A stretch of DNA of 64,000 nt from Alphaproteobacteria bacterium. GTDB lineage: Bacteria > Pseudomonadota > Alphaproteobacteria > UBA828. This document shows positions 7,366 through 42,971 of the stretch, piece by piece. The stretch covers positions 32,001-96,000 of the forward strand of contig CAXXVO010000014.1 in the NCBI GenBank assembly GCA_963422645.2, given 5' to 3'. The position numbers and the translations under genes were made by a program. The notes under the pieces were generated by a model, which saw only the letters and a program-made list of their open reading frames with translations, ran no database searches and was not told where the DNA came from. The first letter of the stretch is position 1. Every line of letters begins with the position of its first letter.

Positions 7366-8282
7366 ATGGGGACGATGATCGGACTTAAGGGCCTCACCTG
7401 GGACCACCGCCGGGCCATCGATCCGATGATCGCGGCGGCGAAGGCCTTCGCCGAGCAGCGACCTGACGTGGACATCGCCTGGGACGTGCAGCCGCTTTCG
7501 GGCTTCGAGTTCCGGCCGATCGATGACATCGTCCGGGACTACGACCTGCTCGTCTTCGATCATCCTCATGTCGGTCATGCCGCTGAGGCGGGCCTGTTGC
7601 GTCCTCTCGATCACCTGTTGCCGCGCGACACGTTCATCGGCCCGTCGCTTGCGACCTATCGCTGGCAGGAGGCGCTGTGGGCGGTGCCGATCGATGCCGC
7701 CTGCCAGACCGCGTGCTACCGGCCCGATCTGCTGCCCGAGGGACCGCCCGCAACCTGGTCGGAGATGATGGCGATGGCAGGCAGACGCCGGCTCGCCTGC
7801 GGCCTCAAGGGCGTTCACGCCTTCATGTGTTTTCTCACCCTGGCCGCCAATCTGGGCGATCCCTCCAAGCAGGAGAAGGCGGGACCGCTGGTCAGGTGCG
7901 AGACGGCAGCGACGGTGCTCGCCATGCTGCGAGAGCTCGCCGCCGCCTGCCCGCCGGAGGCGCTCGACTGGAACTCCATCGCGCTGCAGGATGCCATGCG
8001 CGCGCGCGACGACCTCGCCTATTGCCCCTTGGTTTATGGCTTCGCGACCTATGCCGAAGCCGACCGCGTGCCGCAGCTGGCCTATGCCGATATCCCGGAT
8101 GCAGGCGGCCTGGGTCCGGTCGGCTCGACCATTGGCGGCGCGGGCCTCGGCGTCTCAGCCGAGACGCGCGAGGCGGATGCCGCCGAAGCCTTTGCCGCCT
8201 TCATGGCCGAGGGTGCAATCCAATGCGGCATCGTCGCGCGCTGTCACGGACAGCCCGCCCACCGTGACGCCTGGGACGACCC
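7366..8282 (+). pseudogene. Solute-binding-protein-like gene, 5' part, interrupted by the Mu-like element
   Basis: LKGLTWDH...DLLVFDHPHVG...PIDAACQ; the frame continues in register at 13329 after the insertion. Confidence 0.88.
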
Positions 8283-8288
8283 TGTAGC

Positions 8289-8332
8289 CGGCCAGAAGTC
8301 TTTGCGAATCGCGGCCAGAAGTCTTTGCGAAT
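8289..8332 (+). repeat. Left-end tandem putative transposase-binding sites
   Basis: CGGCCAGAAGTCTTTGCGAAT at 8289-8309 and 8312-8332 (23-bp period). Confidence 0.85.
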
Positions 8333-8451
8333 GGCCTGGAAAACAGGCTGATTTTCGGGGCTGATTCGGGCTGGAAAAACGGCCTCTGCATCGGCCATGC
8401 ACGGGCCGTTCAGGGGCGCGGAATTCGGTGTGCACGGCCCCTGCAAGGGTT

Positions 8452-19528: not shown

Positions 19529-20542
19529 ATGACCGGAACAGGGCAGGACGACCCGGTGGTGCTCGAAGGCGGCTCGCTCTCGGTCGTCGTCGACCCGCTG
19601 ATCGGCGGCACCATTCTCTCCGTCACCCACAAGGGCTTGGGCGCAGCGGTTCTGGGCCGGGCGCCCTGGGATGCGCTGCGCGTGCCCTACGTCTCGACAA
19701 CGCCGGCGGACGAGCTCGGCTGGCTCACGCACTATGGCGGCGGCTGGCCGCTCCTGTTTCCCAACGGCGGCGCCGGCTGCACCTTCGAGGGCGTGCAGCA
19801 CGGCTTCCATGGCGAGGCGTCGCGCGCCCCCTGGCGGGCCGAGACAGGCGACGGCGCCCTTCGCCTTGTCCGCCGGTTCTTCACCGTGCCGGTGACGATG
19901 GAACGCACGATTGCAATCGAGGACGACGTGCTCGTCGTCGACGAGACCGTCCGCATGGAGGGCGCCCGGCCGGCGCGGGTGCTGTGGAATCACCACCCCA
20001 CCTTCGGGGCGGATCTTCTGGCAGACGACTTCACGATCGAGACGTCGGCCGGCTCCGTCACGGTCGACGATGCCTACGATCCGGCAGCCAATCCGCTGCG
20101 ACCGGGCGCCACCGGGACGTGGCCCACCGTGCCCGGCAAGGCGGGACCCTATGACTTGAGCCGGCCCAAGGCGCCGGCCGCGTCAGTCGCTTACCTGAGC
20201 GACTTCGACCGTCCATGGGTCTCACTGCGTCGGCTCGACGGCATGATCGGCGCCGCACTGTCATGGGACTCCGCTCTCTTTCCATACGCCTGGCTATGGC
20301 TCGAGCTCGCCGGCAACCGCGAGGCGCCCTGGCATGGCCGGGCCCACCTGATCGGCGTCGAGCCCAGCACCTCCTGGCCCGCGACCGGCCTCGCCGACAT
20401 TGACCGGCGCGGTGGGCCGCTGCTGACTCTCGAGCCCGGGGACGTCATCAGCACGACGCTTCGTCTCCACGTGTTTCAGCCGCAAGGCCCGGTCCGGGGC
20501 GTGGACGCCGGGGGCCGGGCCATGTTCGATCGGGACCAGTGA
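19529..20542 (+). CDS. Galactose mutarotase-like (aldose 1-epimerase fold) protein
   Basis: GGWPLLFPN, HGE, WNHHP, FPYAWLW, IGVEP motifs. Confidence 0.75.
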   Translation: MTGTGQDDPVVLEGGSLSVVVDPLIGGTILSVTHKGLGAAVLGRAPWDALRVPYVSTTPADELGWLTHYGGGWPLLFPNGGAGCTFEGVQHGFHGEASRAPWRAETGDGALRLVRRFFTVPVTMERTIAIEDDVLVVDETVRMEGARPARVLWNHHPTFGADLLADDFTIETSAGSVTVDDAYDPAANPLRPGATGTWPTVPGKAGPYDLSRPKAPAASVAYLSDFDRPWVSLRRLDGMIGAALSWDSALFPYAWLWLELAGNREAPWHGRAHLIGVEPSTSWPATGLADIDRRGGPLLTLEPGDVISTTLRLHVFQPQGPVRGVDAGGRAMFDRDQ

Positions 20543-21654
20543 TGAAGATCGCCGACCTTTCCGCCTTCGTGCTCCGGCTGCCGCATGTCACCGATGCCTG
20601 CGACGGCAGTCAGGACACCTGTCTCATTCGCATCACCACGGAATCGGGCCTGATCGGCTGGGGCGAGGTCGATTCCTGTCCGACCGTCGTGAAGGCGGTG
20701 ATCGATGCACCGCTCTCGCACCAGATCTGCAACGGGCTCGGCAACATCCTGAAGGGCCGCGACGCAGACGATATCGAGGGGTGCATGCGCGCGATGTACG
20801 ACGGCGCCAACTATTACGGGCGCGTCGGCGTTGGCGCCCACGCCATGGCCGGGGTCAACATCGCGCTCTGGGACATTGCCGGCAAGGCCGCGGGCAAGCC
20901 GGTCCGCGCGCTTCTGGGGTCCGCCGGCCCGACACGCTTCAGGGCCTATTGTTCGATTCTCTTCGGCGATACGCCGGCCGAGACCCGCGACCTCGCCCGT
21001 CGCCATGCCGACATGGGCTTCACCGCCATCAAGTTCGGCTGGGGGCCGATGGGTCAGGACGAAAAGGCCGATATCGCGCTCGTGCGCGAGGCCCGGCGCG
21101 GGGCCGGCGACGACGTCGACATCCTGATCGATGCAGGTCAGGTGTGGGACTGGCAGACGGCGCTCACGCGCGCCCGCCAGTTCGAGGAGTTCCGTCCCTT
21201 CCTTCTCGAAGAGCCGCTGCAGCCGGAGGACATCGATGGCTACCGCCGGTTGACCGCCGAAAGCCCGATCCCGATCGCGACCGGGGAGGCGGAGTCGGAG
21301 CTGGAGGCCTTCCAGCGCCTGGTCAGCGACGGCGGGCTAGACTGGATCCAGCCCGATCCGGGCCGCTGCGGCATTTCTACGTTCGTCGCCGCCGGCCGCT
21401 ATGCCGGCGAGCACGGGGCCAGGGTCGCCAACCACAGCTTCAAGAGCGGCATCACCATCGCAGCGTCTCTTCATGCACTCGCCGCCGTGCCCAGCGGCGA
21501 GATCTTCGAATACTGCATGTCGGAATCGCCGCTGCGCCACGAGGTCACCAGGGAGTCCTTCGATCTCGTCGACGGCTTCGTCGCCGTGCCCGACGAGCCC
21601 GGTCTCGGCGTCACCATCAACCCGAAGACCCTGGAGACCTACCGCGTCGCCTAG
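20539..21654 (+). CDS. Mandelate racemase/muconate lactonizing enzyme family protein
   Basis: VNIALWDIAGK, IKFGW, IDAG, LEEP, TGE, QPD. Confidence 0.9.
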   Translation: MMKIADLSAFVLRLPHVTDACDGSQDTCLIRITTESGLIGWGEVDSCPTVVKAVIDAPLSHQICNGLGNILKGRDADDIEGCMRAMYDGANYYGRVGVGAHAMAGVNIALWDIAGKAAGKPVRALLGSAGPTRFRAYCSILFGDTPAETRDLARRHADMGFTAIKFGWGPMGQDEKADIALVREARRGAGDDVDILIDAGQVWDWQTALTRARQFEEFRPFLLEEPLQPEDIDGYRRLTAESPIPIATGEAESELEAFQRLVSDGGLDWIQPDPGRCGISTFVAAGRYAGEHGARVANHSFKSGITIAASLHALAAVPSGEIFEYCMSESPLRHEVTRESFDLVDGFVAVPDEPGLGVTINPKTLETYRVA

Positions 21655-28187: not shown

Positions 28188-28432
28188 TTTCGAGGCTGGC
28201 TCAAGGGCTTGGACGAAAAGCCAGAATACATCGCCAGACCGCCTTCCCCAAGGCGGTGCAAGGTGCAATTATAGCGCCCGAGGCTGGCCCATTTCGCGCT
28301 CACGCACCCGTGGCGGCGGCCCATAACAGGTCGATTGACGCGTATGTCCTTTGTAGTACTTTTGTCATGCTGGTCTCGTGAGATTAGGGTCGCGCGACGG
28401 GCTGAACGGTGACTCACCAGAGAGAGGGAGCC

Positions 28433-30346
28433 ATGCCGGAGACGCCGCATCTGGACCGCGTGAAGAGCCCCGGAGATCTACGCAACCTTTCGGTCAAGGA
28501 ACTCAAGAAAGTTGCCGGGGAGCTTCGTGCCGAAACCGTCGACGCCGTCTCGGTCACTGGCGGCCATCTGGGCGCAGGCCTTGGCGTCGTCGAGCTGACG
28601 GTCGCCCTCCACCATGTGTTCGACACCCCCCGCGATCGCCTGATCTGGGATGTGGGTCACCAGTCCTACCCGCACAAGATCATCACCGGGCGGCGCGACC
28701 AGATCCGCACCATCCGCCAGCCGGGCGGGCTCTACGGCTTCACCAAGCGGACCGAGAGCGAGTACGACCCCTTCGGCGCGGCGCATTCGTCCACCTCGAT
28801 TTCCGCCGGCCTCGGTATGGCGGTAGCGAGCAGCCTCAAGGGCGAAGCGCGCAACGTCATCTGCGTCATCGGCGACGGCGCCATGTCGGGCGGCATGGCC
28901 TACGAGGCGATGAACAACGCAGGCTCGATGCCGCCCCGCCTCATCGTCATCCTCAACGACAACGAGATGTCGATCGCGCCGGCGGTGGGCGCGCTCAACG
29001 CGTACCTCTCACGGCTGCTCTCCAGCCACCAGTTCCGCAGCCTGCGCGAGCTCGGCAAGCAGTGGGCGCGCAGGCTGCCCAAGGCGATGGGCGACGCGGC
29101 GATGCGGGCCGAGGAGTACTCCCGCGGCATGGTCACTGGCGGCACCCTCTTCGAGGAGCTGGGCTTCTTCTATATCGGGCCGATCGACGGCCACAATCTC
29201 GACCATCTGGTCCCGGTGCTGCGCAACGTGCGCAAGGACGAGACGCCGGGGCCCGTGCTGCTCCACGTCGTCACCAGCAAGGGCAAGGGCTACGAGCCCG
29301 CCGAGAATGCGCCGGACCGCGGCCACGCGCTCGGCAAGTTCGACGTGGTGACGGGTGAGCAGAAGAAGGGCAAGCCCAAGGCGCCGAGCTACACCAACGT
29401 CTTCGCCCAGAGCCTGATCAAGGAGGCGGACCGCGACGAGAAGATCGTGGCGCTGACCGCCGCCATGCCGTCCGGCACCGGGCTCGACAAGTTCGCCAAG
29501 GCGCATCCCGACCGCTGCTTCGACGTCGGCATTGCCGAGCAGCACTGCGTCACCTTCGCGGCGGGGCTCGCAACGGAGGGATTGAAACCCTTCGCCGCGA
29601 TCTACTCGACCTTTCTCCAGCGTGCCTACGACCAGATTGTGCACGACGTGGCGATTCAGAAGTTGCCGGTCCGCTTCGCCATCGACCGCGCGGGCTTGGT
29701 GGGCGCCGACGGCCCCACCCATGCGGGCAGCTTCGATGTCACCTATCTCTCGACGCTGCCGGGCTTCGTCGTCATGGCCGCGGCGGACGAGGCCGAGCTC
29801 GTCCACATGGTGCACACGGCGGCGAGGATCGACGACCGCCCCAGCGCCTTCCGCTATCCGCGCGGCGAGGGTGTCGGCGTGCCGCTGCCGGAGACGCCCA
29901 AGATGCTGGAGATCGGCAAGGGGCGGATCGTGCGCGAAGGCACGGCGATCGCGATCATCTCCCTCGGCGCCCGCTTGCAGGAAGCGCTGAGCGCGGCAGA
30001 TGAGCTGCAGACGCGGGGGCTTTCGACCACCGTCGCCGATGCCCGCTTCGCCAAGCCGTTGGACGAGGACCTGATCCGCCGGCTCGCGCGGGAGCACGAG
30101 GTGGTGATCACCATCGAGGAAGGCTCGATCGGCGGTTTCGGCGCGCATGTCATGCAGTTCCTGGCCACGACGGGCTACCTCGACGGCGGCCTCAAGATCC
30201 GGCCGATGCTCCTGCCCGACCGTTTCGTCGCCCACGGCACGCCCGCCGGCATGTACGAGGACGCGGGGCTCACCGCGCGCGACATCGTCGACACGGCGCT
30301 CGGCGCGCTGGGCAGCAACTCGGCCACCCTGCCGCAACGCGCCTGA
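28433..30346 (+). CDS. dxs: 1-deoxy-D-xylulose-5-phosphate synthase
   Basis: [21 protein letters not shown]...[21 protein letters not shown]. Confidence 0.98.
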
Positions 30347-30351
30347 CGCCC

Positions 30352-32343
30352 ATGCAGGTTGCGCGCGCCGGGCCAGACCGGCGGAGTGAAACCATCGTCC
30401 GCCAGCCGTCGGACAGTCAGGACGGCCCCCTTCCCGCCCCCGACATCGAGCAGGTCATCGAGGACGCCGCCGCCGGCCTGCGCGGCCTGCAGCACGACGA
30501 CGGCCACTGGCTGTTCGAGCTCGAGGCCGATGCGACCATCCCGGCGGAGTACGTCCTTCTCAACCACTTCCTCGACGAGATAGACGACGAGACCGAGGCG
30601 CGTCTCGGCGCCTACATCCGCGCCCGTCAGGCCGATCACGGCGGCTGGCCCCTCTTCCCCGGCGGGGTGTTCGACATTAGCTGCACCGTCAAGGCCTACT
30701 ACGCCCTCAAGCTGATCGGAGACGACCCTGACGCGCCGCACATGGTGCGGGCGCGCAAGGCCGTGCTCGCCGCCGGCGGTGCTGCTCGGTGCAACGTATT
30801 CACGCGGATCAGCCTCGCGCTCTTCGGCCAGGTGCCGTGGCGCGCCGCACCGGCGATGCCGGTGGAGATCATGAACCTGCCCAGGTGGTTCCCCTTCCAT
30901 CTGGACAAGGTCTCCTACTGGTCGCGTACCACCATCGTGCCGCTCACGATCCTGCTCGCGCTGAAGCCCCGCGCACGCAACCCGCGGGGCATCGGGATCG
31001 CCGAGCTGTTCACCACCCCGCCGGAACGGGAATGGCACTATTTCCCACGAGAAACCGCGACGCAGTGGTGCTTCCTGACCCTCGACCGCGTGCTCTCGGT
31101 GGGCGAGAGGGCGATACCGGGCGGGGTGCGGCGGCGCGCGATCGACAAGGCGCTCGACTGGTGCATGACGCGCCTCAACGGCGAGGACGGCTTGGGCGCG
31201 ATCTTCCCGCCGATGGCCAACGTGGTCATGGCCTTCGATGCGCTGGGCTATGGACCCGCTCATCCGCCCCGCCGCACGGCTCGTCGGGCGGTCGACCTCC
31301 TGCTGACCGAGCCCGCGAACGGCAGCCAATATTGCCAGCCTTGCGTCTCGCCGGTCTGGGACACTGGCCTCGCCGCGCTGAGCCTCTTGGAATGCGACAG
31401 TGAGGACGACCGTCGTGCAGCGGACGACTCCCTCCCCTGGCTCGCCGACCTCCAGATCCTCGATGTCGCGGGCGACTGGGCTGCGATGCGGCCGGACGCC
31501 CCGCCGGGGGGCTGGGCCTTCCAGTACCGCAACGATTACTACCCCGACGTGGACGACACCGCGGTCGTCGCCATGGCGCTCCACCGCGCCGATCCCGAGG
31601 CGCACCGCGAGGCACTCGAGCGGGCGGCTGACTGGATCGTCGCCATGCAGAACGAGAACGGCGGCTGGGGCGCCTTCGACGCCGAGAACGAGAACTACTC
31701 GCTCAACCACATTCCCTTCGCCGACCACGGCGCCCTGCTCGACCCCGCAACCGCAGACGTCAGCGCGCGCTGCGTGAGCTTCCTCTGTCAGATCGGGTAT
31801 TCCAGGCAGCACGCCGCCGTCGCCAAGGGCCTCGCCTATCTCCGCGCCGAGCAGGAGGAGAACGGCTCCTGGTTCGGCCGCTGGGGCACCAACTACGTCT
31901 ACGGCACCTGGTCGGTGCTCTGCGCCTTGAACGCTGCCGGCGAGGCCCCGGCTTCGCCCGCCATCCGCAAGGCGGTCGCCTGGCTCGAAGCCAAGCAGCG
32001 CGCCGACGGCGGCTGGGGCGAGACCGGCGACAGCTATTACGCCGAGCGAATCGAGCGCGCGTTCGACGTCGTCTCCACCCCGACGCAGACCGCGTGGGCG
32101 GTGCTCGCGCTCATGGCCGCTGGCGAAGTGCGGAGCGACGCGGTGCGGCGCGGCATCGACTATCTCTGCCGCGCCGAGCGTCAGGGCGCGAAGTGGCTGG
32201 AGGACGACTACACCGCCGTCGGCTTCCCGCGCGTCTTCTACCTCCGCTACCACGGCTACAGCGCCTACTTCCCGCTCTGGGCGCTGGCGCGGTACCGCTC
32301 CCTCGTGCGCGGCAACGACCACCGCCCGCGCCACGGCATGTAA
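30352..32343 (+). CDS. shc: Squalene-hopene cyclase
   Basis: YPDVDDTA catalytic motif, QW repeats, WFGRWGTNY, GFPRVFYL. Confidence 0.98.
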   Translation: MQVARAGPDRRSETIVRQPSDSQDGPLPAPDIEQVIEDAAAGLRGLQHDDGHWLFELEADATIPAEYVLLNHFLDEIDDETEARLGAYIRARQADHGGWPLFPGGVFDISCTVKAYYALKLIGDDPDAPHMVRARKAVLAAGGAARCNVFTRISLALFGQVPWRAAPAMPVEIMNLPRWFPFHLDKVSYWSRTTIVPLTILLALKPRARNPRGIGIAELFTTPPEREWHYFPRETATQWCFLTLDRVLSVGERAIPGGVRRRAIDKALDWCMTRLNGEDGLGAIFPPMANVVMAFDALGYGPAHPPRRTARRAVDLLLTEPANGSQYCQPCVSPVWDTGLAALSLLECDSEDDRRAADDSLPWLADLQILDVAGDWAAMRPDAPPGGWAFQYRNDYYPDVDDTAVVAMALHRADPEAHREALERAADWIVAMQNENGGWGAFDAENENYSLNHIPFADHGALLDPATADVSARCVSFLCQIGYSRQHAAVAKGLAYLRAEQEENGSWFGRWGTNYVYGTWSVLCALNAAGEAPASPAIRKAVAWLEAKQRADGGWGETGDSYYAERIERAFDVVSTPTQTAWAVLALMAAGEVRSDAVRRGIDYLCRAERQGAKWLEDDYTAVGFPRVFYLRYHGYSAYFPLWALARYRSLVRGNDHRPRHGM

Positions 32344-33101
32344 CCAAATCGAGGGCGGGGCGCGTCATGGCTGACCGGTCCCGCGTCGGCATTGTCACGG
32401 GCCTCGTGGCCGAGGCCGAGACCCTGCCCGAGGGCGACTTCTGGATCGCGGTCTCGGGCGCGAGCCCTGAGCGCGCGGCTCAGGCGGTCGATGCGATGGT
32501 CGCGGGCGGCGTGCGGCTGCTGGTGAGCTACGGCTTCGCCGCCGGGCTTGATCCGCGCCTCGGCCCGGGAGACCTTGTGCTGCCCGAGGCCGTCATCGTC
32601 CACGAAGGGGAGGTCGAGGAACCCCATCGCGGCGGCGTGCGCGACCAGCTCCAGCGGCTCACCTCCTTCAAGCGGGACAGCGACTCCGAGCCGCCGCCTG
32701 CGCCCACGGACGAAGACCTCATGATGGCGGATGCGGCCGTGCGGGAGGCGCTGGGTCGGGAGCTGGAAGAGCCGGATGCGGGTGGCATCGTCGCCGGCGT
32801 CGACCGCCCGCTGACGAACGGCAGCCAGAAGCTCTCCCTTCTCGCTCAGACCCGCGCCAGGGTTGCGGACATGGAGAGCCACGTGGTCGCGCGGGCCGCG
32901 GTGGCCGCCGGGGTGCCCTTCGTCGCGATCCGGGTCGTGAGCGACCCGAGCAACCGCGCCCTCCCGCGCGCCGCCCTCGCCGGGCTTACCGATGAGGGCC
33001 GCGTCGATGGCCGCGCGGTCGCAGGCACGCTGCTGCGGCGCCCGTGGGAGTGCATCGACATGCTGACGCTCGCGCTCGACGGAGCGCAGGCGATGCGCCG
33101 G

Positions 33102-34274
<1,173 letters not shown>

Positions 34275-34280
34275 CGGACC

Positions 34281-35258
34281 CTACTCGGCGGGCGCCGCGC
34301 TGGCGGCAGGTTCCTGCGCCTTGCCGTTGCCGCTTGCCTCGACCAGCTCGGCCGGCAGCTTGAAGCGCACCCGCTCCTTGATCCCGTCCTGGATTTGCAG
34401 CTCGACCGCGTTGATCTCCCGCAGCCGGGCGACCAGATCCTGCACCAGCTCTTCGGGCGCCGATGCGCCGGCGGTCACGCCCACGCGGCGCACGCCGTCG
34501 AACCACGTCGGGTCGAGGTCGCGGGCGTCGTCGATCAGGTGGGTCGGCACACCCATCTCCTCGCCGATCTCGCGCAGCCGGTTGGAGTTGGAGCTGTTGC
34601 GCGCGCCCACCACGAGGATCAGCTCCACGTCTTCCGCGAGCTTGCGCACCGAGGCTTGCCGGTTCTGGGTCGCGTAGCAGATGTCCTTCACGTCGGGGCC
34701 GGAGATGCTCGGGAAGCGTGAGGTCAGCGCCTCGATCACGTCGCGGGTGTCGTCGACGCTGAGCGTGGTCTGGGTGACGTAGGCGACCTTGTCGGGATTG
34801 GCCACTTCGAGCTTCGCGACGTCGGCCGGCGTGGCGACGATATGCACCCCGTTCTTCACGCGGCCGCTGGTGCCCTCGACCTCGGGATGCCCGTCGTGGC
34901 CGATCAGGATGATCTCGCGGCCCTCGCGCTCGTAGCGCCTGGCCTCGATGTGCACCTTGGCCACCAGTGGGCAGGTCGCATCGATCACCGGCAGGTTCCG
35001 GTTCGCGGCCTCGCTCTCCACCTTCTCGGACACACCATGGGCGCTGAAGATGGTGACCGCGCCTTCGGGCACCTCGTCGATCTCCTCGACGAAGACCGCG
35101 CCCTTCTTGCGCAGGTCGTCCACCACCCGCTTGTTGTGCACGATCTCGTGGCGGACGTAGACCGGCGGGCCGAAGACCTCGAGCGCACGCTCAACGATCT
35201 CGATCGCCCGCTCGACGCCGGCGCAGAAGCCCCGGGGCTCCGCCAGGATGACCTGCAT
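34281..35258 (-). CDS. ispH: 4-hydroxy-3-methylbut-2-enyl diphosphate reductase
   Basis: [39 protein letters not shown]. Confidence 0.98.
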
Positions 35259-35551
35259 GCTACCGTTGTCGCCCAAGTTAGGCCCTCGCTCAATCATGGA
35301 GGTGCTCCGGGCGGGGCCGTCGACTCCACACCCAGAGCTACCACTACACCCTATCGCAGACCCGCGATTCCGACAACACGCACCTTCCCCGCCGGCAGGC
35401 GGGTAGCGGCCTGCTCGCGTCCCCGTCAGGCAGCCTGCGCTCCGCGCGCGTCCCGCCCGACATGCGCAGGCCGCACGAGGGCGGGAAGCGAGATCCGGCG
35501 GTGAGGCGGGGGCCGGCAGCACCGGGAGACCTTCTGTCTGCCCCGGTCGCT

Positions 35552-36952
35552 TCAGGTGGAATGCTTGCGCGAAGTGTCGGCGCTCGAGCCCGCAGGCTGA
35601 CGGGCAATCCTTTCACGAACCTTCGCCAGCACCGCGGAGGGCGGGCGGGCCGGTGTCCAGTCAGGACGATCGGCGGCGGAGGTGGTGGCGTCGATCCCGA
35701 GCTTGCCGACGACGCCGTCCTTCTCCAGCGGCTCGGCCCGGTCCGCCTGAACGCCCGGCACGACGATCAGGTCGCGTTCGGGCCGCATGCGGGTCGCCAG
35801 CGCATGCTCCACGGCAACGGGGTCCCACGGGTCGACGTCGCCATCGACCACCGTGACTTGTTTCACAAGACTGACCGCGGCCCAGACGGCGAAGATCGCT
35901 CTGCGCGCCGCTCCCTCGCGGGCACCGTCGAGGTTCACGACGGCATGCAGCCGGCCCGCGCCACCCGCCGTCACAGCCACCTCGCGCACCGATGGCAGAA
36001 CCCGATGCAGCGATCGGCGCAGCCCGGCCGCGATCGCCTCCGCACCGAGCAGAATGTGTTCGCCCGCATAGCCTGGAAGCACGCACTGGAAAATGGCGTC
36101 GCTGCGCCGGGTCATGTGCGAGAAGGTCACGACATAACCCGCGCCATAACGCTCGTACATGCCGTGAAATTCGCTGACCGGACCTTCCTCGACGGTCTCG
36201 TCGGGATCGAGCACGCCTTCCAGGACGATCTCGCAGTGCGCCGGCACGGGAAGATCGATGCCCCGGCCCGGCACCACCTCGACGGGCTCGCCGAGCAGAG
36301 CGCCGGCGACTTCAAGCTCATCGTCCCCGAGTCCCAGATAGAAGCAGGCCGCGAGCATGACCGCCGGATGATTGCCCAGTGTCACGGCGATCTCCAGCCG
36401 CTCGCCGCGCGCCTGTGCGGCGCGCGCCAGGACGGCGAGATGATGGTTCGGTGCAATGCCGATGAACGCGCGGTTCCCGCCGAGGGGCTTCAGTCGTGCG
36501 ATCGAGAGATTCCCGTGGCCCGTGACGGTGTCCTTCGCAATGATCGCACCTGCGGTGATGTAGGGTCCGGTCTCGTGCTCGAAGAAGGTGGGGATCGGCA
36601 GGGCGGCCAGGTCCGGGTTCGGCACGACAACCTCCTGGCACGGGGCATCGCCGGCAACGACCCGCGGTGCGAGCGGGCTCTGCACGGCATCGACGAGCCG
36701 GGCCTGCAACCGATCGGTTTCGACGCCCGCCGCCCGCGCCGCCTGCGCCCGTGTCGTCAGGTGATTGCCGGTCACGGCCATGGCGTGCCCGGCGACGTTC
36801 TCGAACACTACCGGGCCTCGTCCATCGAGAAGCGACAGCCAGGCAGCGATTTCGTAGACCGGATCGACTCTCTCCGCGATCCGGGTCAACGCACCGGACT
36901 CCTCCGCCATGGCGAGGAATGCGCGCATGGATTGCCGGTGGTGCGTCGTCAT
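35552..36952 (-). CDS. UbiD family prFMN-dependent decarboxylase
   Basis: [49 protein letters not shown]. Confidence 0.92.
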
Positions 36953-38433
36953 GCTGCACCTCCTTGTCCGGCGCGGTCGTCGGCGAAGATGCGCGCCGTC
37001 AGATCGCCCGCGAGGCGCTGCATCTCGGGGCCCAGAACCCGGTCGGCGTGCACCGGCGGCACGCGGCTGCGGACCAGAGACAGGAGGTCGGCGAGCCGCT
37101 TCGGCACCCGCTCCCGGTTCAGGACATGGAGCGCCTGCGAGGCTGCGACGGCCAGAACCGCAAGCGCCGAGTCGAGCGATTGACCTGCCGCCATGCACTT
37201 CGGCCAGGCGAGAAACGCGGGCGCGCCCACATCGTCCTGCCCGAAGACGCTCGCGTCTGCGGCCGGAATGAAGGTCCGTGTGGCGGCGGCGCGCGCCTCT
37301 TCGAGGAAGCCCGCAATCGCCATCGGCAGGTATCCGACGGCGCCGTGACCGTCGGTCTCGCCCGCGCCGCGCCCCACCAGCAGGAAATCGGGAAATCCGG
37401 AGACGCGCCCGTTCATCAGTCCGGCGCAGAGACGCAGGCATATCAGACAGAGGTCCGCCCAGGCGCCGGTAATGCCGTCCATGGCCGGTGCGGCAACCGA
37501 ATTGTGAAAGCCGCCGGTGCTCAGGCAGCGTCCGTGCGCGTGGGTCTCGTCGGGCGCGAGATAGACCGGATTGTGGGTCACCGCCGACAGGCTCTGCGCC
37601 GCGAGCCCCTGCGCGAAGCCGATCGCCGCATGAGCCTGCGCCAGCACGTGGGGCACGATCCGGTAGCTCACCGGCCCCTGGTGGGGACGCGGCTCACCGC
37701 AGTCGGTCATGCCGTCGAGCAGGGCCGCCAGACGCGCGAAGGCCCGCCGGTCGTGCGCGCCGCCCAGCAGCCCGCCCAGAACCGCCTCGTAGTGCTCGGC
37801 CGGGGCGTTGAATGCCACGATCGCCAGCGCCAACACCTCCTCGGCCACCGCGATCCGCCGCTCGGCGCTCAACACCGCATCGGCCAGGATCGCGGCTGCG
37901 GCGGGGGATCCGTTGATCAGCGCACCGCGCTCTCCGGCCTGCAGCTCGAACCGCTCCGACAACGCGGCGAACAGCGTGTAGAGGACCAGGATTTCGCCCG
38001 GCCCGCCCTGACCCTGCCTCGGCACGCAGGGAATAGGGCCGTGGTTCAACATCCCGACAAGCGCCTCAACCAGCCGTGGCGTCGCCATCCCATGGCCGCC
38101 CAGCAGATTGGCGAACCGCGCAAGGACCATGGCGCGCGCGACGCGATGCGGGTAGGGCTCGCCGAACGCGACGGCCGCGGCCAGCGGTTTCAGGCTGGCG
38201 AGGCGCCGCCGATCCTCCTCGTCGAGTGTCCGCCCGACCATCTCGCCATGCCCCCTGTTCACGCCATACACCGACGCATTCGGGTCTTTGTCGAGGTAGC
38301 GCATGAAGGCGGCACGAGACGCTGCGATCCCGCTCAGAGCCGCAGCATCGATGGCCACCGGCTCGCCCTTCCAGGCGACGGCCAGCACCGCCTCGGGCGT
38401 GATGTCGAAACGCGAAGCCAGGACCACCGTCAT
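36949..38433 (-). CDS. Aromatic amino acid ammonia-lyase superfamily protein lacking the ASG (MIO) motif
   Basis: VYGVNRGHG, ALING, QGPVSYR, THNP, GGFH and GQDDV match the HAL/PAL fold; the MIO loop reads GQGGPGE instead of GSVGASGD. Confidence 0.85.
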   Translation of the reverse strand: MTVVLASRFDITPEAVLAVAWKGEPVAIDAAALSGIAASRAAFMRYLDKDPNASVYGVNRGHGEMVGRTLDEEDRRRLASLKPLAAAVAFGEPYPHRVARAMVLARFANLLGGHGMATPRLVEALVGMLNHGPIPCVPRQGQGGPGEILVLYTLFAALSERFELQAGERGALINGSPAAAAILADAVLSAERRIAVAEEVLALAIVAFNAPAEHYEAVLGGLLGGAHDRRAFARLAALLDGMTDCGEPRPHQGPVSYRIVPHVLAQAHAAIGFAQGLAAQSLSAVTHNPVYLAPDETHAHGRCLSTGGFHNSVAAPAMDGITGAWADLCLICLRLCAGLMNGRVSGFPDFLLVGRGAGETDGHGAVGYLPMAIAGFLEEARAAATRTFIPAADASVFGQDDVGAPAFLAWPKCMAAGQSLDSALAVLAVAASQALHVLNRERVPKRLADLLSLVRSRVPPVHADRVLGPEMQRLAGDLTARIFADDRAGQGGAA

Positions 38434-38813
38434 GGCGCACGCCGTCCGCCCCGCTCAGGTGTGCCTCGGGACGGCCCGGCGCTGCCGGCGAATTCGAGAG
38501 CATCGCCGTCGTGCATGGGATCACCTCGCAGGGGCTCGATGAACGATGAACCGCCCGTGCGCAGAAGTCGAGACGGTAGCCGGTGCGGCGGACGGTGCCG
38601 TGCCTCTCTGGGGGCCATTTCAAGGCCGATCCACAGGGCGCAAGCGATATCGGCGGAAGCAGATCACCGCTTCGAGATCATCGACGCGACTTGGGTGGGC
38701 CCGGACAGGTTACTTGTGGCCTGCGATCGGAAGCGCCTGTCCAGCAACCGCAGAGCCGGGATCGCGACGTGCTAATGTTCGAAGGTGAAGAGGCCGTCCG
38801 GCAGTCCCCGATA

Positions 38814-39935
38814 ATGACGATGCGCACGAGCACGAACTATCTGAACGAGCAGGCGTGGCGCTACTTCTGGCACCCGGTGTGCACGGTCGCGGAACTGCGC
38901 GCTGCGGCGGCAAATGGGAAGCGGCCGCTTGCCGTAACCCTGCTCGGCGAGAGGCTGGCGGTGGCGGAAATCGGCGGCCGCGTCGCAGCGCTCGACGACC
39001 GTTGCATCCACCGCTCGACCAAGCTCTCGGTGGGGCGCACCGAATCCGGAGGACTGCGCTGCGCGTATCACGGATGGCTCTACGGAGCGGACGGGCGGTG
39101 CCGGGAGATTCCCTCGATGCCCGACCACTCGATTCCCGACGACTGCAAGGTCAGGGCCCACGACGCGGCCATCGAATACGACCTGGTCTGGGTGCGGCTC
39201 GATTCCTCGCTCGATACCCGAGTCCCCGGTTGTCCCGCGTTCGGCGATGCCGCATTTCGCTCCGTGGCGGGCGAGCCCTACACGTGGCCGACGTCGGCGG
39301 CGCGGCGGCTGGAGAACTTCGTCGACCTCGCACACTTTCCCTTCGTGCACGACGGCTCGCTCGGGGACCGGCGCCAGACGCGCGTTCCCATCGCCAGGGT
39401 CGATCGGCTCAACCGGGAGCTGCGCTTTCAATTCATGCCGTCGTCGGAGATGCAGCTTCCCGGCGTCGCCCTCATGGCGCCCACCGACTATCGCCTCTGG
39501 GTGCCGTTTACCGTCAATCTCGAGTTCTTCTTCCCCGACGGCGAGCGCAACCAGCTCTGGATGTCCGCCTCCCCAGTCGAGTCCGGCATGTGCCGCAGCT
39601 TCTGGTTCACCAGCCGTACTGCGGATCGGGACGGACCGGACCAACCGCACCTCGACTTCCAGGCTCTGGTGCTGAGCGAAGACCTGCCGGTGATCGAGGC
39701 GCAGGAGCCGCCCGAGATTCCTGCCCCCGCCGAGGAGTATTCCGTGCGCACCGACAAGGTCTCCGTCGCCTATCGCAGGTGGCTCAAGGAGTTGTCGAGA
39801 GCCGCGGAGATAAGCGCGGACGCGCTGGCCCGCTGCCTCGATTCGGTGCGCATCGAATCCGACCGGGCCTTCGACGACATGCCGTCTCCCGCTTCGGCGG
39901 CGGGCGACGGCGCTTCCGCTTCGGCGGCGGAGTAA
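38814..39935 (+). CDS. Rieske non-heme iron oxygenase alpha subunit, methylxanthine N-demethylase (NdmB)-like
   Basis: DRCIHR...CAYHGW Rieske motif; ENFVDLAHFPFVH iron site; FWHPVCT and YDLVWVRLD resemble NdmB as I recall it. The start could be 38775 or 38820. Confidence 0.85.
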   Translation: MTMRTSTNYLNEQAWRYFWHPVCTVAELRAAAANGKRPLAVTLLGERLAVAEIGGRVAALDDRCIHRSTKLSVGRTESGGLRCAYHGWLYGADGRCREIPSMPDHSIPDDCKVRAHDAAIEYDLVWVRLDSSLDTRVPGCPAFGDAAFRSVAGEPYTWPTSAARRLENFVDLAHFPFVHDGSLGDRRQTRVPIARVDRLNRELRFQFMPSSEMQLPGVALMAPTDYRLWVPFTVNLEFFFPDGERNQLWMSASPVESGMCRSFWFTSRTADRDGPDQPHLDFQALVLSEDLPVIEAQEPPEIPAPAEEYSVRTDKVSVAYRRWLKELSRAAEISADALARCLDSVRIESDRAFDDMPSPASAAGDGASASAAE

Positions 39936-39994
39936 GGCTGGGACGGCTGCCTCGCGAGGTCACGATCGAGCGCACGGAAGGGAGCCAAGGGCAG

Positions 39995-40315
39995 ATGGGG
40001 AGCGTCGTCTATCACGTTGTGGGCGAAAGAGCCCATCTCCGCGAGGGCGAGGTCAAGCAAGTTGCCGTCGAGGGAAGGGAATTCGCGCTCTACAGAATCG
40101 GCGGCGAGTTCTTCGCCACCGACGATACCTGCACGCATGCCCACGGCTCCCTGAGCGAGGGATACGTAGAAGGCGAGGAAATCGAGTGTCCGCTTCACGG
40201 CGCCTGCTTCAACATCCGCACCGGCGAAGCAACCTGCCCGCCGGCGACGGAGGCCCTCGCCACCTACGAGGTGAGAGTCGAAGGCGAGGATATCCTGGTC
40301 GGCATTCGCGCCTGA
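39995..40315 (+). CDS. Rieske-type ferredoxin
   Basis: DTCTHA...LSEG...IECPLHGACF. Confidence 0.93.
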   Translation: MGSVVYHVVGERAHLREGEVKQVAVEGREFALYRIGGEFFATDDTCTHAHGSLSEGYVEGEEIECPLHGACFNIRTGEATCPPATEALATYEVRVEGEDILVGIRA

Positions 40316-40384
40316 GCGTCGCCACGGGCAGGCTCCGCGGCGCGGTACGCCCGCAACAAGAATTTTCTTACGAGAGGACCGACA

Positions 40385-41515
40385 ATGGCAGGCCGGTTAG
40401 AGCGAACGATCGAAGCCGATGTTCAGTCCGGCCTTTACGACGGAGCCGCGACGATCGTTGCCGTCGGCGGCGAGATCGCGTTCGACGAGACGATCGGATA
40501 CGCCGATCGCCCCAATGAGACGCCGCTCCGCCGTGACAGCGTCTTCCCGGTGTTCTCGATTTCGAAGGCGCTCACCGCCGTTGCCCTGCTGCAGCGCATC
40601 GAGCGCGGCGAGGCCAGACTCGATACACCGGTCTGCGAAGTGATTCCCGAGTTTGGGGTCAAGGGGAAGGCGCGCGCCACGCTCGGGCAGCTTCTCTGTC
40701 ACACGGCGGGGGTGGCCCCCGGCTTTCCGGCCGTCCCCGCAGACAAGCAAGGCGATCTCGAGGCGGTCGTTGCCGCCGTCTGCGATACGCCTGCGGTCTC
40801 GGTGCCGGAAGAGGAGGCGAGTTATTCGCAGATCATGGCACACGCGGTGGCGGCGGCGTGTGTCCGGAGGCTGGACGGGAGCGGGCTTCGCTTTCGCGAT
40901 ATCGTGATACGCGACATTTGTGCGCCGCTCGGTATGACGGACACGTGCCTCGGAATGCGTGCGGATCTCGCGTCCCGCGGCATTGTCCCCCGTTGCACGG
41001 ATCGCAGCCCCGGGTTGTTCGATCCGGACGCCCTCGTCGCGGCGGCGCAGGACATCATGAACCCGGCGCTCGATCACGAGATGCCTGCTGCCGGCTTCGT
41101 CTCGACGCTGAACGACATTTACGCATTTGCAGAGGCGCTCCGGTGCGGAGGAGGGCGAGGCGAAGCGCGCATGCTCTCCCCTGCCATGGTCGCATTCGCG
41201 ACCAGAGTTCATACGGGGACCATGGTCAACACCCAGTGGCATTTCGCGCGCGAGATGAAGGGCTGGCCCGCGTTCCCTGCCAATCTCGGTCTCGGTTTCT
41301 TCATCCGTGGCGAGGGCATGATCCCCACCTATTTCGGGCATCTGTCGAGCCCGGAAACATTCGGCGCCTTCGGTGCCGGTTCGACCAACATGTGGGTCGA
41401 CCCGACGCGTGACATGGTCATGGTCTGCCTTACGACCGGCATTCTGGAAGAGACGAACAGCGCCGCTCGCTTTCAGCGCATCTCGGACGTCGCAATCGCG
41501 GAATTCTATCGCTGA
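40385..41515 (+). CDS. Serine hydrolase, beta-lactamase class C/esterase family
   Basis: FSISK (SxxK), LLCHTAG, PLGMTDT, WVDP. Confidence 0.9.
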   Translation: MAGRLERTIEADVQSGLYDGAATIVAVGGEIAFDETIGYADRPNETPLRRDSVFPVFSISKALTAVALLQRIERGEARLDTPVCEVIPEFGVKGKARATLGQLLCHTAGVAPGFPAVPADKQGDLEAVVAAVCDTPAVSVPEEEASYSQIMAHAVAAACVRRLDGSGLRFRDIVIRDICAPLGMTDTCLGMRADLASRGIVPRCTDRSPGLFDPDALVAAAQDIMNPALDHEMPAAGFVSTLNDIYAFAEALRCGGGRGEARMLSPAMVAFATRVHTGTMVNTQWHFAREMKGWPAFPANLGLGFFIRGEGMIPTYFGHLSSPETFGAFGAGSTNMWVDPTRDMVMVCLTTGILEETNSAARFQRISDVAIAEFYR

Positions 41516-41685
41516 TGCACTCGGAGCGGTGTGAGACAAGCGAGGCGCCGCAATCGAATGGGGCCCTCGAATTGGGGCCGACGACACGGCCGGCCCATGC
41601 AGCCTGGGCGCAACAGCGAGCCTCGTGACTCGGCGCGTTCTCTCGGAATCAACACCGTCGCCCCGAGTGTCGTTCCGCTCCCTCG

Positions 41686-42849
41686 TTAGCGGTCGGTGCG
41701 ATAGAAGGCGACCGCGTCTTCGTTAAGCTCGATGCCGAGGCCAGGACCCGTCGGCAAGGGCATGCGGCCGTTCTCGATCTTGGGCTCCGGTCCCACGAGA
41801 TCGCGGCGCAGCGGCGAATCGAAGACGACCGGCGAAATGTATTCGAAGAGCGGCGTCTGCGGACATGCGGCCTGCAGGTGACGGCCGCAGGCGGAGGTTA
41901 TGCCGGTCTTCCAGCCGTGCGGAATCACGTCGGCGCCGTAGAGCTCCGCGAGCTCGCAGATGCGCCTGAGCTCGGTCAGGCCGCCGGCGCGATCGATGGC
42001 CGACTGGATGACGTGCACCTTGCCGACCTCGAGCCACTCGCGCGCTTCGAAGCGCGTCGCGCCGAATTCGGCACCGCCGATCCGGATCGGGCTGTTCGCG
42101 GCAAGCCGCGCGTGGCCCAGCAGATCGTCGTGCTGCAGCGGCGCCTCGGCGAAGTAGATATCGCAATCGGCGACCCGGTCGAGCACCCAGCGCGCGTCGG
42201 CCCAGCTCCTCCAGCGGTAGCCGAAGTCGAGCGCCATGGTGATCCCGTCGCCCAGCATGCGCCGGCCGATCTTGATCTGCTCGACCAGCTCGGCGTCGCT
42301 GACAAGGTCGCCGAACAGGACCTCCATCTTGACCGCGTCGAACCCGGTGGCGAGGGCGGTGTCGAACTGCTGCTCGATGACCGCCATCAGCTCCCCGATC
42401 GAGCGATCGTGCGGCATGCCGGGAAAGATCGTGCAATAGGGCCGCAGATCGTCGCGCCTCGCGCCGCCCAGGAGCTTGTAGGCCGGCAGGCCGAGCTGCT
42501 TGCCCGCAAGATCGTGGAGCGCGATGTCGACCGCAGAGAGCGCGTGGATGCCAAGACCCCGCCGACCGGGAAAGATCGTGCCTTCGTAGAGCTTCTCCCA
42601 GAGCGCTACCGTCTCCACCGGATCGGCGCCGATCAGCACCTCGGCGGCGTTGCGGCTCCACAGGTGCTGGGTCGGCATCTCCAGGAACGCCTTGACGGCA
42701 TGGGCGGGCGCGTCGCATTCGCCGATCCCGCTCAGGCCGTTCTCGTCGGTCAGGCGGACTACGACCGTCTCGGTCGTGCCGTCCAAGTCCTCGGGCTTGG
42801 CGTCGCGATTGGCGAGCGGGATGACGTCGATCGACGCAATGGGAGTCAT
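41686..42849 (-). CDS. Mandelate racemase/muconate lactonizing enzyme family protein
   Basis: GRRGLG, VDIALHDLAGK, VKMEV, LDFG, AEAP, GAE, PHGWK. Confidence 0.9.
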   Translation of the reverse strand: MTPIASIDVIPLANRDAKPEDLDGTTETVVVRLTDENGLSGIGECDAPAHAVKAFLEMPTQHLWSRNAAEVLIGADPVETVALWEKLYEGTIFPGRRGLGIHALSAVDIALHDLAGKQLGLPAYKLLGGARRDDLRPYCTIFPGMPHDRSIGELMAVIEQQFDTALATGFDAVKMEVLFGDLVSDAELVEQIKIGRRMLGDGITMALDFGYRWRSWADARWVLDRVADCDIYFAEAPLQHDDLLGHARLAANSPIRIGGAEFGATRFEAREWLEVGKVHVIQSAIDRAGGLTELRRICELAELYGADVIPHGWKTGITSACGRHLQAACPQTPLFEYISPVVFDSPLRRDLVGPEPKIENGRMPLPTGPGLGIELNEDAVAFYRTDR

Positions 42850-42971
42850 GAAATCACGCCTTCGCTTGAGTGGCGGGCCCCGCCTTGCCGCGCGGAACGC
42901 CCTCGTCCCGGCGGCGGCAGGATGCAGGCCGGGCCCCTGCCGAAAGAACGAGAACAACCTGGTCCGAACCT

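Follow-up and report, generated by a model that had tools for sequence, protein, structure and literature searches.

The question raised by this locus is whether five adjoining genes encode a single catabolic route. They lie in a 64,000-nucleotide stretch of an alphaproteobacterial genome (positions 32,001 to 96,000 of contig CAXXVO010000014.1, assembly GCA_963422645.2, GTDB lineage UBA828), which we refer to as the window. Two of them encode a lyase of the histidine/phenylalanine ammonia-lyase (HAL/PAL) fold without the serine from which the 4-methylideneimidazole-5-one (MIO) group is formed, and a UbiD-family decarboxylase; divergent from this pair are genes for an NdmB-like Rieske oxygenase, a ferredoxin and a serine hydrolase (Table 1). 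An earlier note on this DNA proposed that the five enzymes act together on an N-methylated heteroaromatic amino acid or betaine. MIO-less HAL-fold lyases have been recognised only recently, first ergothionase and then the histidine-betaine lyases, and they govern how trimethylamine is released from betaines in the diet and the environment. We find that the lyase and UbiD genes very probably form a functional module, and we are confident, though slightly less so, that this module is independent of the Rieske operon. The lyase belongs to a distinct clade of HAL-fold enzymes that has not been described before; this clade is recognisable by the motif GQGG[P/A]GE, and its members are predicted to be unable to form MIO.

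The description of the lyase gene in the earlier note, with a VYGVNRG loop and with GQGGPGE in place of a MIO-forming serine, was correct: the first motif holds Tyr56, and the second spans residues 141-147. We aligned the protein with six relatives from its clade, three true HALs (two of them MIO-bearing HutH proteins) and four ergothionase-like proteins that came from ergothioneine clusters (L119, L130 and L103 among them). The MIO loop of the three true HALs is GSVGASGDLAPL, and the corresponding loops of the ergothionase-like proteins read GSVGE-AD, GSVGA-AD, GTVGE-GD and GSIGC-AD. All seven aligned clade members have GQGG(P/A)-GE, in which two residues replace Ala-Ser-Gly and no Ser is present; compared with GSVG-ASG-D of HAL, the loop is one residue shorter, with P-G where A-S-G stands. 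The MIO triad (Ala-Ser-Gly or Thr/Cys-Ser-Gly) is likewise absent from 20 aligned lyase orthologues with identities down to 53%, in which Tyr56, G141, G143, G144, G146, E147, I148 and L149 never vary and Q142 hardly does. The catalytic Tyr56 lies within a (V/I)YG(V/I) motif that the clade alignments show throughout. The lyase also retains N174 (the Asn of LING(S/A)P), Q252 and R258; in HAL, this Gln and Arg hold the carboxylate of the substrate. The ratio of nonsynonymous to synonymous substitution rates (dN/dS) is 0.13-0.26 against five orthologues. Judged from these sequences, the motif is conserved in orthologues and not due to chance, and the gene is under purifying selection. Because of this conservation and selection we regard the lyase as not degenerate, a possibility that the earlier note had raised, and it is most likely catalytically competent.

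An AlphaFold2 model of the lyase (predicted local distance difference test score 84.6; predicted template modelling score 0.88) has template modelling (TM) scores of 0.80-0.86 to structures of HAL, tyrosine aminomutase (TAM) and ergothionase, which Foldseek did not tell apart. At the sequence level, the best PDB match is HAL (6v6h, E=7e-21), that to ergothionase (6s7j, E=1.3e-4) is marginal, and the scores with the NCBIfam HAL models (152-162 bits) fall short of the cut-offs (524-539). Excerpts of two reports state that MIO is required to activate a primary amine as leaving group, and that the MIO-less relatives are trimethylammonia-lyases, whose trimethylamine leaves readily (10.64898/2026.04.22.720169, 10.1101/2025.08.13.670108). 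The pocket of the lyase clade differs from that of HAL in having Val for Y280, Ala (Ala86/87) for H83 and Asp400, or Asn in some members, for E414. An excerpt of one of these reports describes a His and a Glu as the residues contacting N-tau and N-pi of the imidazole, both in HAL (H83/E414) and in the histidine-betaine lyase Swoo_3913 (His117/Glu467) (10.1101/2025.08.13.670108). This His is kept in three of the four ergothionase-like proteins (L119, L130 and L103) and the Glu in all four; the lyase clade has neither.

A word-indexed search yielded at least 120 lyase homologues at 53% identity or more, mostly unnamed or annotated as “histidine ammonia-lyase” or “aromatic amino acid lyase”, and a scan of one genome per species gave 177 loci in Alpha- and Gammaproteobacteria. 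Counts of lyase loci given below refer to the best 80 of these 177, and counts of UbiD loci to the best 80 of 370, with flanks of up to 9-10 kb and genes called in the related loci by a heuristic based on G+C content at third codon positions (GC3); many of the loci are contigs of metagenome-assembled genomes (MAGs), and related genomes are not independent observations. The best 80 lyase loci include Rhodospirillales MAGs, Dongia, Inquilinus, Mesorhizobium, Rhizobium, Rhodobacterales and Steroidobacteraceae. A tree was built from 79 of these relatives (one incomplete row was left out), to which were added the lyase of the window, a paralogue encoded in the same genome and seven outgroups, namely six ergothionase-like proteins from clusters for ergothioneine utilisation and one true HAL, after five near-duplicate outgroups had been left out. 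The GQGGxGE proteins are monophyletic, with 100% support in the Shimodaira-Hasegawa-like approximate likelihood ratio test (SH-aLRT) and a very long branch; their nearest outgroup is the true HAL, the long branches leaving the exact sister group unsure. The paralogue, which is 43% identical and of the GQGGAGE type (G000:C8:150451-151878; locus L090:9428-10882, minus strand), is located just downstream of SoxB/SoxA/SoxG-like genes of the heterotetrameric sarcosine-oxidase type. A hydantoinase_A-like gene is close by, and transposase genes surround the region. Of 18 relatives in the genus, 15 carry a paralogue of this type, and Sox-like neighbours were seen in only one of the eight relatives with 1.5-kb flanks.

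The second protein of the pair exceeds the cut-off of the UbiD model TIGR00148 (286.1 against 244.85 bits). Its best PDB matches are 6h6v/6h6x at 270 bits, identified as HmfF in an excerpt of PMC8988006, followed by AnInD (7p9q, 163 bits), whereas the acrylic-acid Fdc1 enzymes score 60-79 bits. Residues R153, E245 and E261 are invariant in eight relatives and align with R155, E250 and E266 of AnInD, which according to the same excerpt form the E(D)-R-E network that includes the catalytic Glu (PMC8988006). The dN/dS values of 0.20-0.28 indicate that the UbiD gene, too, is under purifying selection. Because HmfF and AnInD outscore Fdc1, we place the predicted enzyme nearer to decarboxylases acting on acids with a five-membered heteroaromatic ring than to those of the cinnamate type. 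HmfF and AnInD, its closest structures, act on ring carboxylates, and this counts among the points that do not support the interpretation in the earlier note. Despite the similarity of 270 bits to HmfF, neighbours of the hmf type for furan catabolism were not seen in the annotated related loci.

We found 370 relatives of this UbiD, of which the best 80 are 55-91% identical. The window genome encodes one UbiX homologue, on another contig (C13:244496-245038), and a separate canonical UbiD; a UbiX gene adjoins in 10 of the 80 lyase loci and 28 of the 80 UbiD loci. In Solirubrobacterales loci (L186, L191 and others), UbiD-UbiX pairs 58-62% identical to the window UbiD occur in a conserved cell-division and cell-wall neighbourhood (FHA, PP2C phosphatase, FtsW, PknB-like kinase, Ddl), and these loci have no lyase and no genes for ergothioneine utilisation (Ert). 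This setting shows that the UbiD subfamily is not confined to Ert contexts.

The 4-bp overlap of the two genes was also confirmed. The ATGA is common to both genes, and we read it as translational coupling of the predicted lyase and UbiD. Beyond the window, a UbiD gene (48-91% identity) is present within 9 kb of the lyase gene in 24 of the 80 related loci. These belong to four clades of the lyase tree (nine loci plus the window itself in the window clade, and five each in the Rhodobacterales, Dongiaceae-type and Rhizobiales clades), so the linkage that the earlier note had drawn from a single locus is recurrent. The pairs of the window clade and the Dongiaceae-type clade are arranged head-to-tail with junctions of 0-36 bp; such tight junctions were found in L001-L008, L013, L019, L023, L066, L067 and L070. 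When the search was centred on UbiD, a GQGGxGE lyase was present in 17 of the 80 loci.

The surroundings of the pair vary between relatives, and several genes near it deserve mention. The hpnH/ispH flank is common only to L001, other relatives of 86-91% identity having different flanks. An archaeal anhydromevalonate-phosphate decarboxylase of the UbiD type exists; a hopanoid or isoprenoid role for the window UbiD, which adjoins ispH and hpnH, was rejected because that flank is shared by L001 only. Directly upstream of the pair and on the same strand, a marine-type subclade of Rhodospirillaceae MAGs carries a gene for a DUF6687 protein (341 aa, PF20392 E=1.9e-73, L004:7928-8953), which was found in L004, L006, L015 and L147, with a shorter, interrupted match in L007, and is absent from the window genome. 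In the 90%-identical relative L002, a gene of the ornithine cyclodeaminase (OCD)/mu-crystallin family (7430-8395) directly precedes the lyase gene.

Indications of function come from the gene content of related loci. The Ert pathway consists of ergothionase (ErtA), thiourocanate hydratase (ErtB), thiohydantoin desulfurase (ErtC), hydantoin-5-propionate amidohydrolase (ErtD) and N-carbamoyl-L-glutamate amidohydrolase (ErtE), the last two of which convert hydantoin-5-propionate to glutamate. Genes for the lyase, UbiD, UbiX, ErtD and ErtE are clustered in Rhodobacterales and Rhizobiales (L016, L020, L022, L026, L059, L061, L072/L109), several of these clusters being without ErtB and ErtC. In L016, the scores of ErtD (783.5 bits) and ErtE (578.9 bits) lie above the cut-offs of the NCBIfam equivalogs (600 and 520, respectively). 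A LysR gene is also present in lyase-UbiD-Ert loci, and L095 adds TctABC and a two-component system. Pairs of the Dongiaceae-type clade are accompanied by an ErtD-like amidohydrolase (558 bits, under the cut-off), by an Asp/Glu/hydantoin racemase and by a CN-hydrolase. Allantoin or pyrimidine catabolism was considered for the amidohydrolase and M20 neighbours and rejected, since the ErtD and ErtE models score above their cut-offs and those of allantoinase and dihydropyrimidinase below. In five genomes with lyase, UbiD and ErtD(E), no thiourocanate hydratase above the 930-bit cut-off was found, the best scores (667-706 bits) falling in the range of ordinary urocanase (HutU).

Searches were also centred on the other partners. 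Among the 80 UbiD-centred loci, many of which are from related Bradyrhizobium and Xanthobacteraceae genomes, ErtD is present in 40, ErtB in 36, ErtE in 35 and ErtC in 33, and an ergothionase-like gene in none at the thresholds used. The Ert-linked UbiDs are spread over five or more clades of the UbiD tree, where they are interleaved with lyase-linked ones. The 44 loci retrieved with ErtD contain ErtB (26), ErtC (25), the window-type UbiD subfamily (11) and a HAL-family gene detected with the L119 protein (12, of which 11 are without Ala-Ser-Gly); in none of the 44 do UbiD and an ergothionase-like gene occur together within 10 kb. In Roseiarcus (L064), a GQGGxGE lyase gene follows UbiX at the end of an S-methyl-type arm, composed of UbiD, an ABC transporter, an S-methyl-type ErtC-like protein (36% to ErtC), a glutathione S-transferase (GST), an S-methyl-type ErtB-like protein (51% to ErtB) and UbiX; an arm of this type was typed by NCBIfam in L154.

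Some of these clusters have features of their own. Bradyrhizobium and Xanthobacteraceae carry a supercluster of about 18 kb (L149-L199; e.g., L154:2473-20347) with hydratase/desulfurase sets for both thiourocanate and S-methyl-thiourocanate. In the Bradyrhizobium type the order is ErtD, ErtE, thiohydantoin desulfurase, thiourocanate hydratase, two LysR genes, UbiD and a Liv/Urt-type ABC transporter, and then the S-methyl thiohydantoin desulfurase (NF058532), a GST-like gene, the S-methyl thiourocanate hydratase (NF058531), UbiX and an OCD-like gene. This OCD-like gene (family f16, e.g., L174:19296-20336) follows UbiX in 11 such loci. No ergothionase-like lyase was found within 10 kb of the supercluster. 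In B. jicamae, two MIO-bearing HutH-type genes are located just past it, and Sphingomonas zeicaulis has two MIO-less HAL-like genes about 5-8 kb past the edge of its ErtD locus.

The earlier note had suggested a methylhistidine, hercynine or ovothiol-like substrate. A substrate of the hercynine or ergothioneine type gains indirect support from genomes in which the pair accompanies UbiX, ErtD and ErtE, whereas the position of the lyase outside the ergothionase-like clade speaks against it; an ergothioneine-family link of the pair seems to us a little more doubtful than assured. We think it probable that the substrate family is related to ergothioneine or thio-imidazole compounds, because the UbiD subfamily, often with the lyase, occurs in Ert clusters of Alpha- and Betaproteobacteria that end in ErtD/ErtE.

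Our preferred reading, which we would neither back nor dismiss with conviction, is that the pair is a self-contained two-step module for elimination and decarboxylation, acting on a heteroaromatic betaine, whether related to ergothioneine or not. If the lyase works in the manner of ergothionase and histidine-betaine lyase, Tyr56 would abstract the beta-proton of a heteroaromatic amino-acid betaine and a methylated (quaternary or tertiary) ammonium would be expelled from the alpha-carbon, with an amine and an alpha,beta-unsaturated acid as the products. Glu147, which is invariant and stands where MIO would be in HAL, may serve as partner of the positively charged leaving group. The HmfF-like UbiD, with prenylated flavin mononucleotide (prFMN) supplied by the single genomic UbiX, would decarboxylate the acid produced by the lyase or a ring-carboxylated congener. 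The analysis shows the gene structure, the conservation of the two genes, their coupling, their separateness from the Rieske operon and the association with Ert genes in other genomes, whereas we infer which group leaves, in what order the steps run and what the substrate is. Glutamate, the product of ErtE, was also considered as a substrate of the lyase and was rejected on chemical grounds by inference, its beta-proton being unactivated and MIO being absent. A bolder and, in our judgement, unlikely extension is that the GQGG[P/A]GE proteins form a third class of MIO-less HAL-fold lyases and, with the HmfF-like UbiD, a new entry branch of ergothioneine-family catabolism. Thio-, S-methyl- or seleno-imidazole betaines would then be converted to hydantoin-5-propionate and passed on to ErtD/ErtE by a route that bypasses thiourocanate hydratase and thiohydantoin desulfurase, and UbiD enzymes would gain a role, not described before, in the metabolism of sulfur-containing histidine betaines.

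Several observations weigh against the two-step reading. The imidazole-binding His and Glu of HAL, ergothionase and histidine-betaine lyase are replaced by Ala and by Asp or Asn, so the ring pocket of the lyase is unlike that of all characterised relatives. The GQGGxGE clade is not nested among the six ergothionase-like outgroups and is split from them by a branch with 100% support. The UbiD is nearest to decarboxylases of ring carboxylates and not to the acrylic-acid Fdc1 enzymes. No UbiD gene lies near the lyase gene in 56 of the 80 loci, which means that the lyase does not need UbiD. Five genomes with a stand-alone lyase were tested (Mesorhizobium, Inquilinus, Dongia, a Steroidobacteraceae-type MAG and Rhizobium): tig, secA, accA, purC and other housekeeping genes surround it there, and an HmfF-like UbiD (E<=1e-20) was absent from all five, with one match at 32% identity. 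Conversely, 38 rows of the UbiD tree are from Ert clusters without a GQGGxGE lyase, and in the closest relatives the pair is flanked by unrelated housekeeping genes. Decarboxylation of thiourocanate would, moreover, be incompatible with the glutamate-yielding ErtB-E steps, and this clash leaves the UbiD substrate within Ert clusters unexplained.

The genome of the window organism (99.6% complete, 8.5% contamination) adds to these points. ErtB, ErtC and urocanase were not detected in it by tblastn, none of ErtB-E lies within the 64-kb window, and the only ErtD-like/ErtE-like pair, on another contig, reaches 509 bits against a cut-off of 600. It is thus other genomes that supply the Ert link; the window organism itself provides the two-gene module, and its pathway context is borrowed from other lineages. 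The ErtE-like M20 hydrolase and ErtD-like amidohydrolase genes in question (G000:C10:417579-420546, L089) are flanked by DDE and IS66 transposase genes and adjoin luciferase-like monooxygenases and a truncated open reading frame (ORF) resembling a Rieske alpha subunit.

An alternative is that the two enzymes act on different molecules of one nutrient family, or are merely co-expressed, with no product handed over; UbiD would then take a ring-carboxylated five-membered heteroaromatic acid as HmfF does, and the lyase would cleave a betaine or amine. This is consistent with the 270-bit match to HmfF, with Burkholderiales homologues of 55-63% identity that include a Cupriavidus basilensis record, and with the occurrence of the lyase alone in most genomes and of UbiD in Ert clusters that have no lyase. 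However, the stop/start overlap and the tight junctions are kept in several clades, and adjacency recurs in four lyase clades, and we consider separate substrates rather unlikely.

The same order of enzymes could serve biosynthesis. As in the bagremycin and ferroverdin pathways, the pair would then turn an amino acid into a vinyl-(hetero)arene for use as building block or signal. Both proteins, and UbiX, give weak NCBIfam matches to the corresponding models (BagA/FevW lyase, BagN/FevL UbiD, BagM/FevK UbiX), and in the window clade the pair sits among housekeeping genes, not transporters or regulators. The scores, however, are 31 and 102 bits against cut-offs of 1000, no tailoring or assembly genes are conserved nearby, and the neighbours in other lineages (ErtD/E, transporters, LysR) are catabolic. 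Elimination of ammonia from a plain aromatic amino acid would, in addition, be unexpected without MIO. A biosynthetic role is thus improbable.

We give still less credence to a HAL-like protein without lyase chemistry, whether a binding or regulatory protein, an accessory subunit of UbiD, or a Tyr-based hydratase or isomerase. The loss of both MIO and the imidazole-binding residues would agree with this, and translational coupling is typical of subunits, but Tyr56, N174, Q252, R258 and many other active-site positions are invariant, the HAL fold is full-length, and the protein often stands alone in genomes that have no HmfF-like UbiD.

This leaves the five-gene route with which we started, in which elimination and decarboxylation would be followed by ring N-demethylation. 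The Rieske, ferredoxin and hydrolase genes are divergent from the pair as the earlier note described, and their identities were confirmed by domains and PDB matches: the best matches of the oxygenase are NdmB (6icl, 284 bits) and NdmA (6icp, 283 bits), in keeping with the kinship that had been proposed. The long Rieske ORF starts at a GTG 231 nt upstream of position 38814. Because relatives in the genus carry a stop codon upstream of about residue 60 of this ORF, translation probably starts near 38814, and the 77 N-terminal residues of the long ORF would not be translated.

The distribution of the two units was then compared. By tblastn (E<=1e-10; some loci are short), none of the 80 lyase loci contains the window's Rieske, ferredoxin or hydrolase. 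In L002, L003, L008 and L013, whose lyases are 86-91% identical and whose sequences extend 5.9-9 kb upstream of it, other genes occupy that place (an OCD-like gene, a 2-oxoglutarate (2OG) oxygenase, a luciferase-like monooxygenase, and a short-chain dehydrogenase/reductase (SDR) with a thiamine pyrophosphate (TPP) enzyme). Among 18 genomes of the genus, three have a lyase-UbiD orthologue (89-92% identity; G006, G010, G015) and five a Rieske orthologue (81-91% identity; G007, G009, G010, G012, G014). Both units are present in G010 only, where they are adjacent and divergent as in the window. The ferredoxin gene accompanies the Rieske gene in four of the five genus loci (L215, L216, L217, L219), and the hydrolase gene in two (L215 and L219). 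Non-co-occurrence of the two operons had been set beforehand as the observation that would tell against the five-gene neighbourhood, and save for G010 this is what we found. A single five-gene route, coherent as its chemistry is on paper and strongly NdmA/B-like as its Rieske protein is, with a divergent layout around some 380 bp of shared intergenic region in the window and G010, is therefore close to refuted by the phyletic pattern, with 0 of 80 lyase loci carrying any of the three genes, the Rieske gene lacking the lyase in G007, G009, G012 and G014, and the pair lacking the Rieske gene in G006 and G015, and we regard it as the least credible of the alternatives.

Table 1. Features at 33.1-41.5 kb of the window.
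Feature	Position	Strand	Evidence
MIO-less HAL/PAL-fold lyase, 494 aa, member of the GQGG[P/A]GE clade	36949-38433	-	PF00221 E=5.5e-57
UbiD-family (prFMN-dependent) decarboxylase, 466 aa, HmfF-like subfamily	35552-36952	-	UbiD_N, UbiD and UbiD_C domains
ATGA overlap of lyase stop and UbiD start	36949-36952	-	minus-strand sequence GCATGA
NdmA/NdmB-like Rieske non-haem-iron oxygenase	ORF 38583-39935, probable start 38814	+	Rieske and VanA_C domains
Rieske-type [2Fe-2S] ferredoxin, 105 aa	39998-40315	+	PF00355 E=5e-21; NF007422 113.4 bits against cut-off 113
Beta-lactamase-fold (class C/esterase-like) serine hydrolase	40385-41515	+	PF00144 E=7.6e-53
hpnH	33102-34274	-	Radical_SAM and DUF3463 domains
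ispH	34281 to ~35258	-	LYTB domain

The other features of the region can be summarised briefly. The serine hydrolase has weak NCBIfam matches, all well under their cut-offs. A gap of 293 bp separates the UbiD stop from the probable start of ispH on the same strand, and hpnH and ispH are housekeeping isoprenoid/hopanoid genes outside the lyase-UbiD module; together with dxs (28409-30346) and a squalene-hopene cyclase gene (30352-32343) they make up an isoprenoid/hopanoid set (28409-35522) directly downstream of the pair. A scan of the window with Rfam gave no matches, and a scan of positions 33000-42000 for promoters and terminators gave no sites. Three genes of the window resemble dehydratases of the enolase superfamily (mandelate racemase/muconate-lactonizing enzyme, MR/MLE; 5950-7122, 20539-21654 and 41686-42957), and each is near sugar-type ABC transporter, SMP-30/gluconolactonase, SDR or GFO/IDH/MocA genes, which suggests several units for the utilisation of acid sugars.

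Separating the NdmA/B-like operon from the pair keeps a false five-gene pathway out of annotation. The lyase clade is widespread (177 species-level genomes), and its substrate pocket is unlike that of known MIO-less lyases; its recurrent coupling to UbiD and the presence of UbiD in Ert clusters suggest that the breakdown of ergothioneine-like compounds includes a step that has yet to be explained. If our preferred two-step reading is true, it would add a class of physiological substrate to the UbiD family, of which few members have known roles.

How does the pair compare with known systems? In the case of NdmA/NdmB the likeness concerns the Rieske gene only, which shares the Rieske plus VanA_C architecture and matches across the whole catalytic core, whereas in the window its companions are genes for a Rieske ferredoxin and a beta-lactamase-fold hydrolase. 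In bagremycin and ferroverdin biosynthesis, a tyrosine ammonia-lyase is followed by a UbiD/UbiX decarboxylase that acts on the acrylic-acid product. This succession of a HAL-family lyase (BagA/FevW) and a prFMN decarboxylase (BagN/FevL, with BagM/FevK) is the logic we propose for the pair, although that lyase is MIO-dependent and acts on tyrosine in a biosynthetic cluster, and the window proteins lie far under the model cut-offs.

HmfF and AnInD, which decarboxylate 2,5-furandicarboxylate and indole-3-carboxylate, respectively, are the nearest solved relatives of the UbiD and share its E(D)-R-E network; the neighbours of the window subfamily, however, are a MIO-less lyase and/or Ert genes, and hmf genes are not nearby. 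With respect to the Ert pathway, the lyase and UbiD of relatives cluster with ErtD/ErtE, and UbiD also with ErtB/ErtC and their S-methyl variants, unlike the window and its genome. In the open-access PubMed Central (PMC) and bioRxiv literature, we found nothing that ties UbiD or the lyase clade to the metabolism of ergothioneine, thiourocanate or hydantoin-5-propionate.

HutH and the other MIO enzymes (PAL, tyrosine ammonia-lyase (TAL) and the aminomutases) share PF00221 with the lyase, and a true HAL is its nearest outgroup in the tree; they differ from it in having the MIO triad and, in HAL, Y280, H83 and E414 where the lyase has Val, Ala and Asp. The closest parallel in chemistry would be the trimethylammonia-lyases acting on ergothioneine and histidine betaine (T. 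denticola 6S7J; Shewanella SO_3057, SO_3299 and Swoo_3913). Like them, the window-type lyase has the HAL fold (TM 0.82-0.84 to 6s7j), no Ala-Ser-Gly and the same one-residue-shorter loop, keeps the catalytic Tyr and the Gln/Arg carboxylate binders, and in some genomes lies beside ErtD/ErtE. Unlike them, it keeps the LING(S/A)P Asn motif of HAL, which is absent from the ergothionase-like proteins, matches marginally in sequence, forms a separate clade and does without the imidazole-binding His/Glu; in T. denticola ergothionase, Lys384 has been assigned to thiolate binding in an excerpt of 10.64898/2026.04.22.720169. The window-type lyase is furthermore cytoplasmic and coupled to UbiD, not to thiourocanate hydratase or a flavocytochrome. 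Therefore, while MIO-less lyases and pairs of a lyase with UbiD were already known, what appears to be new is a GQGGxGE clade coupled to an HmfF-like UbiD.

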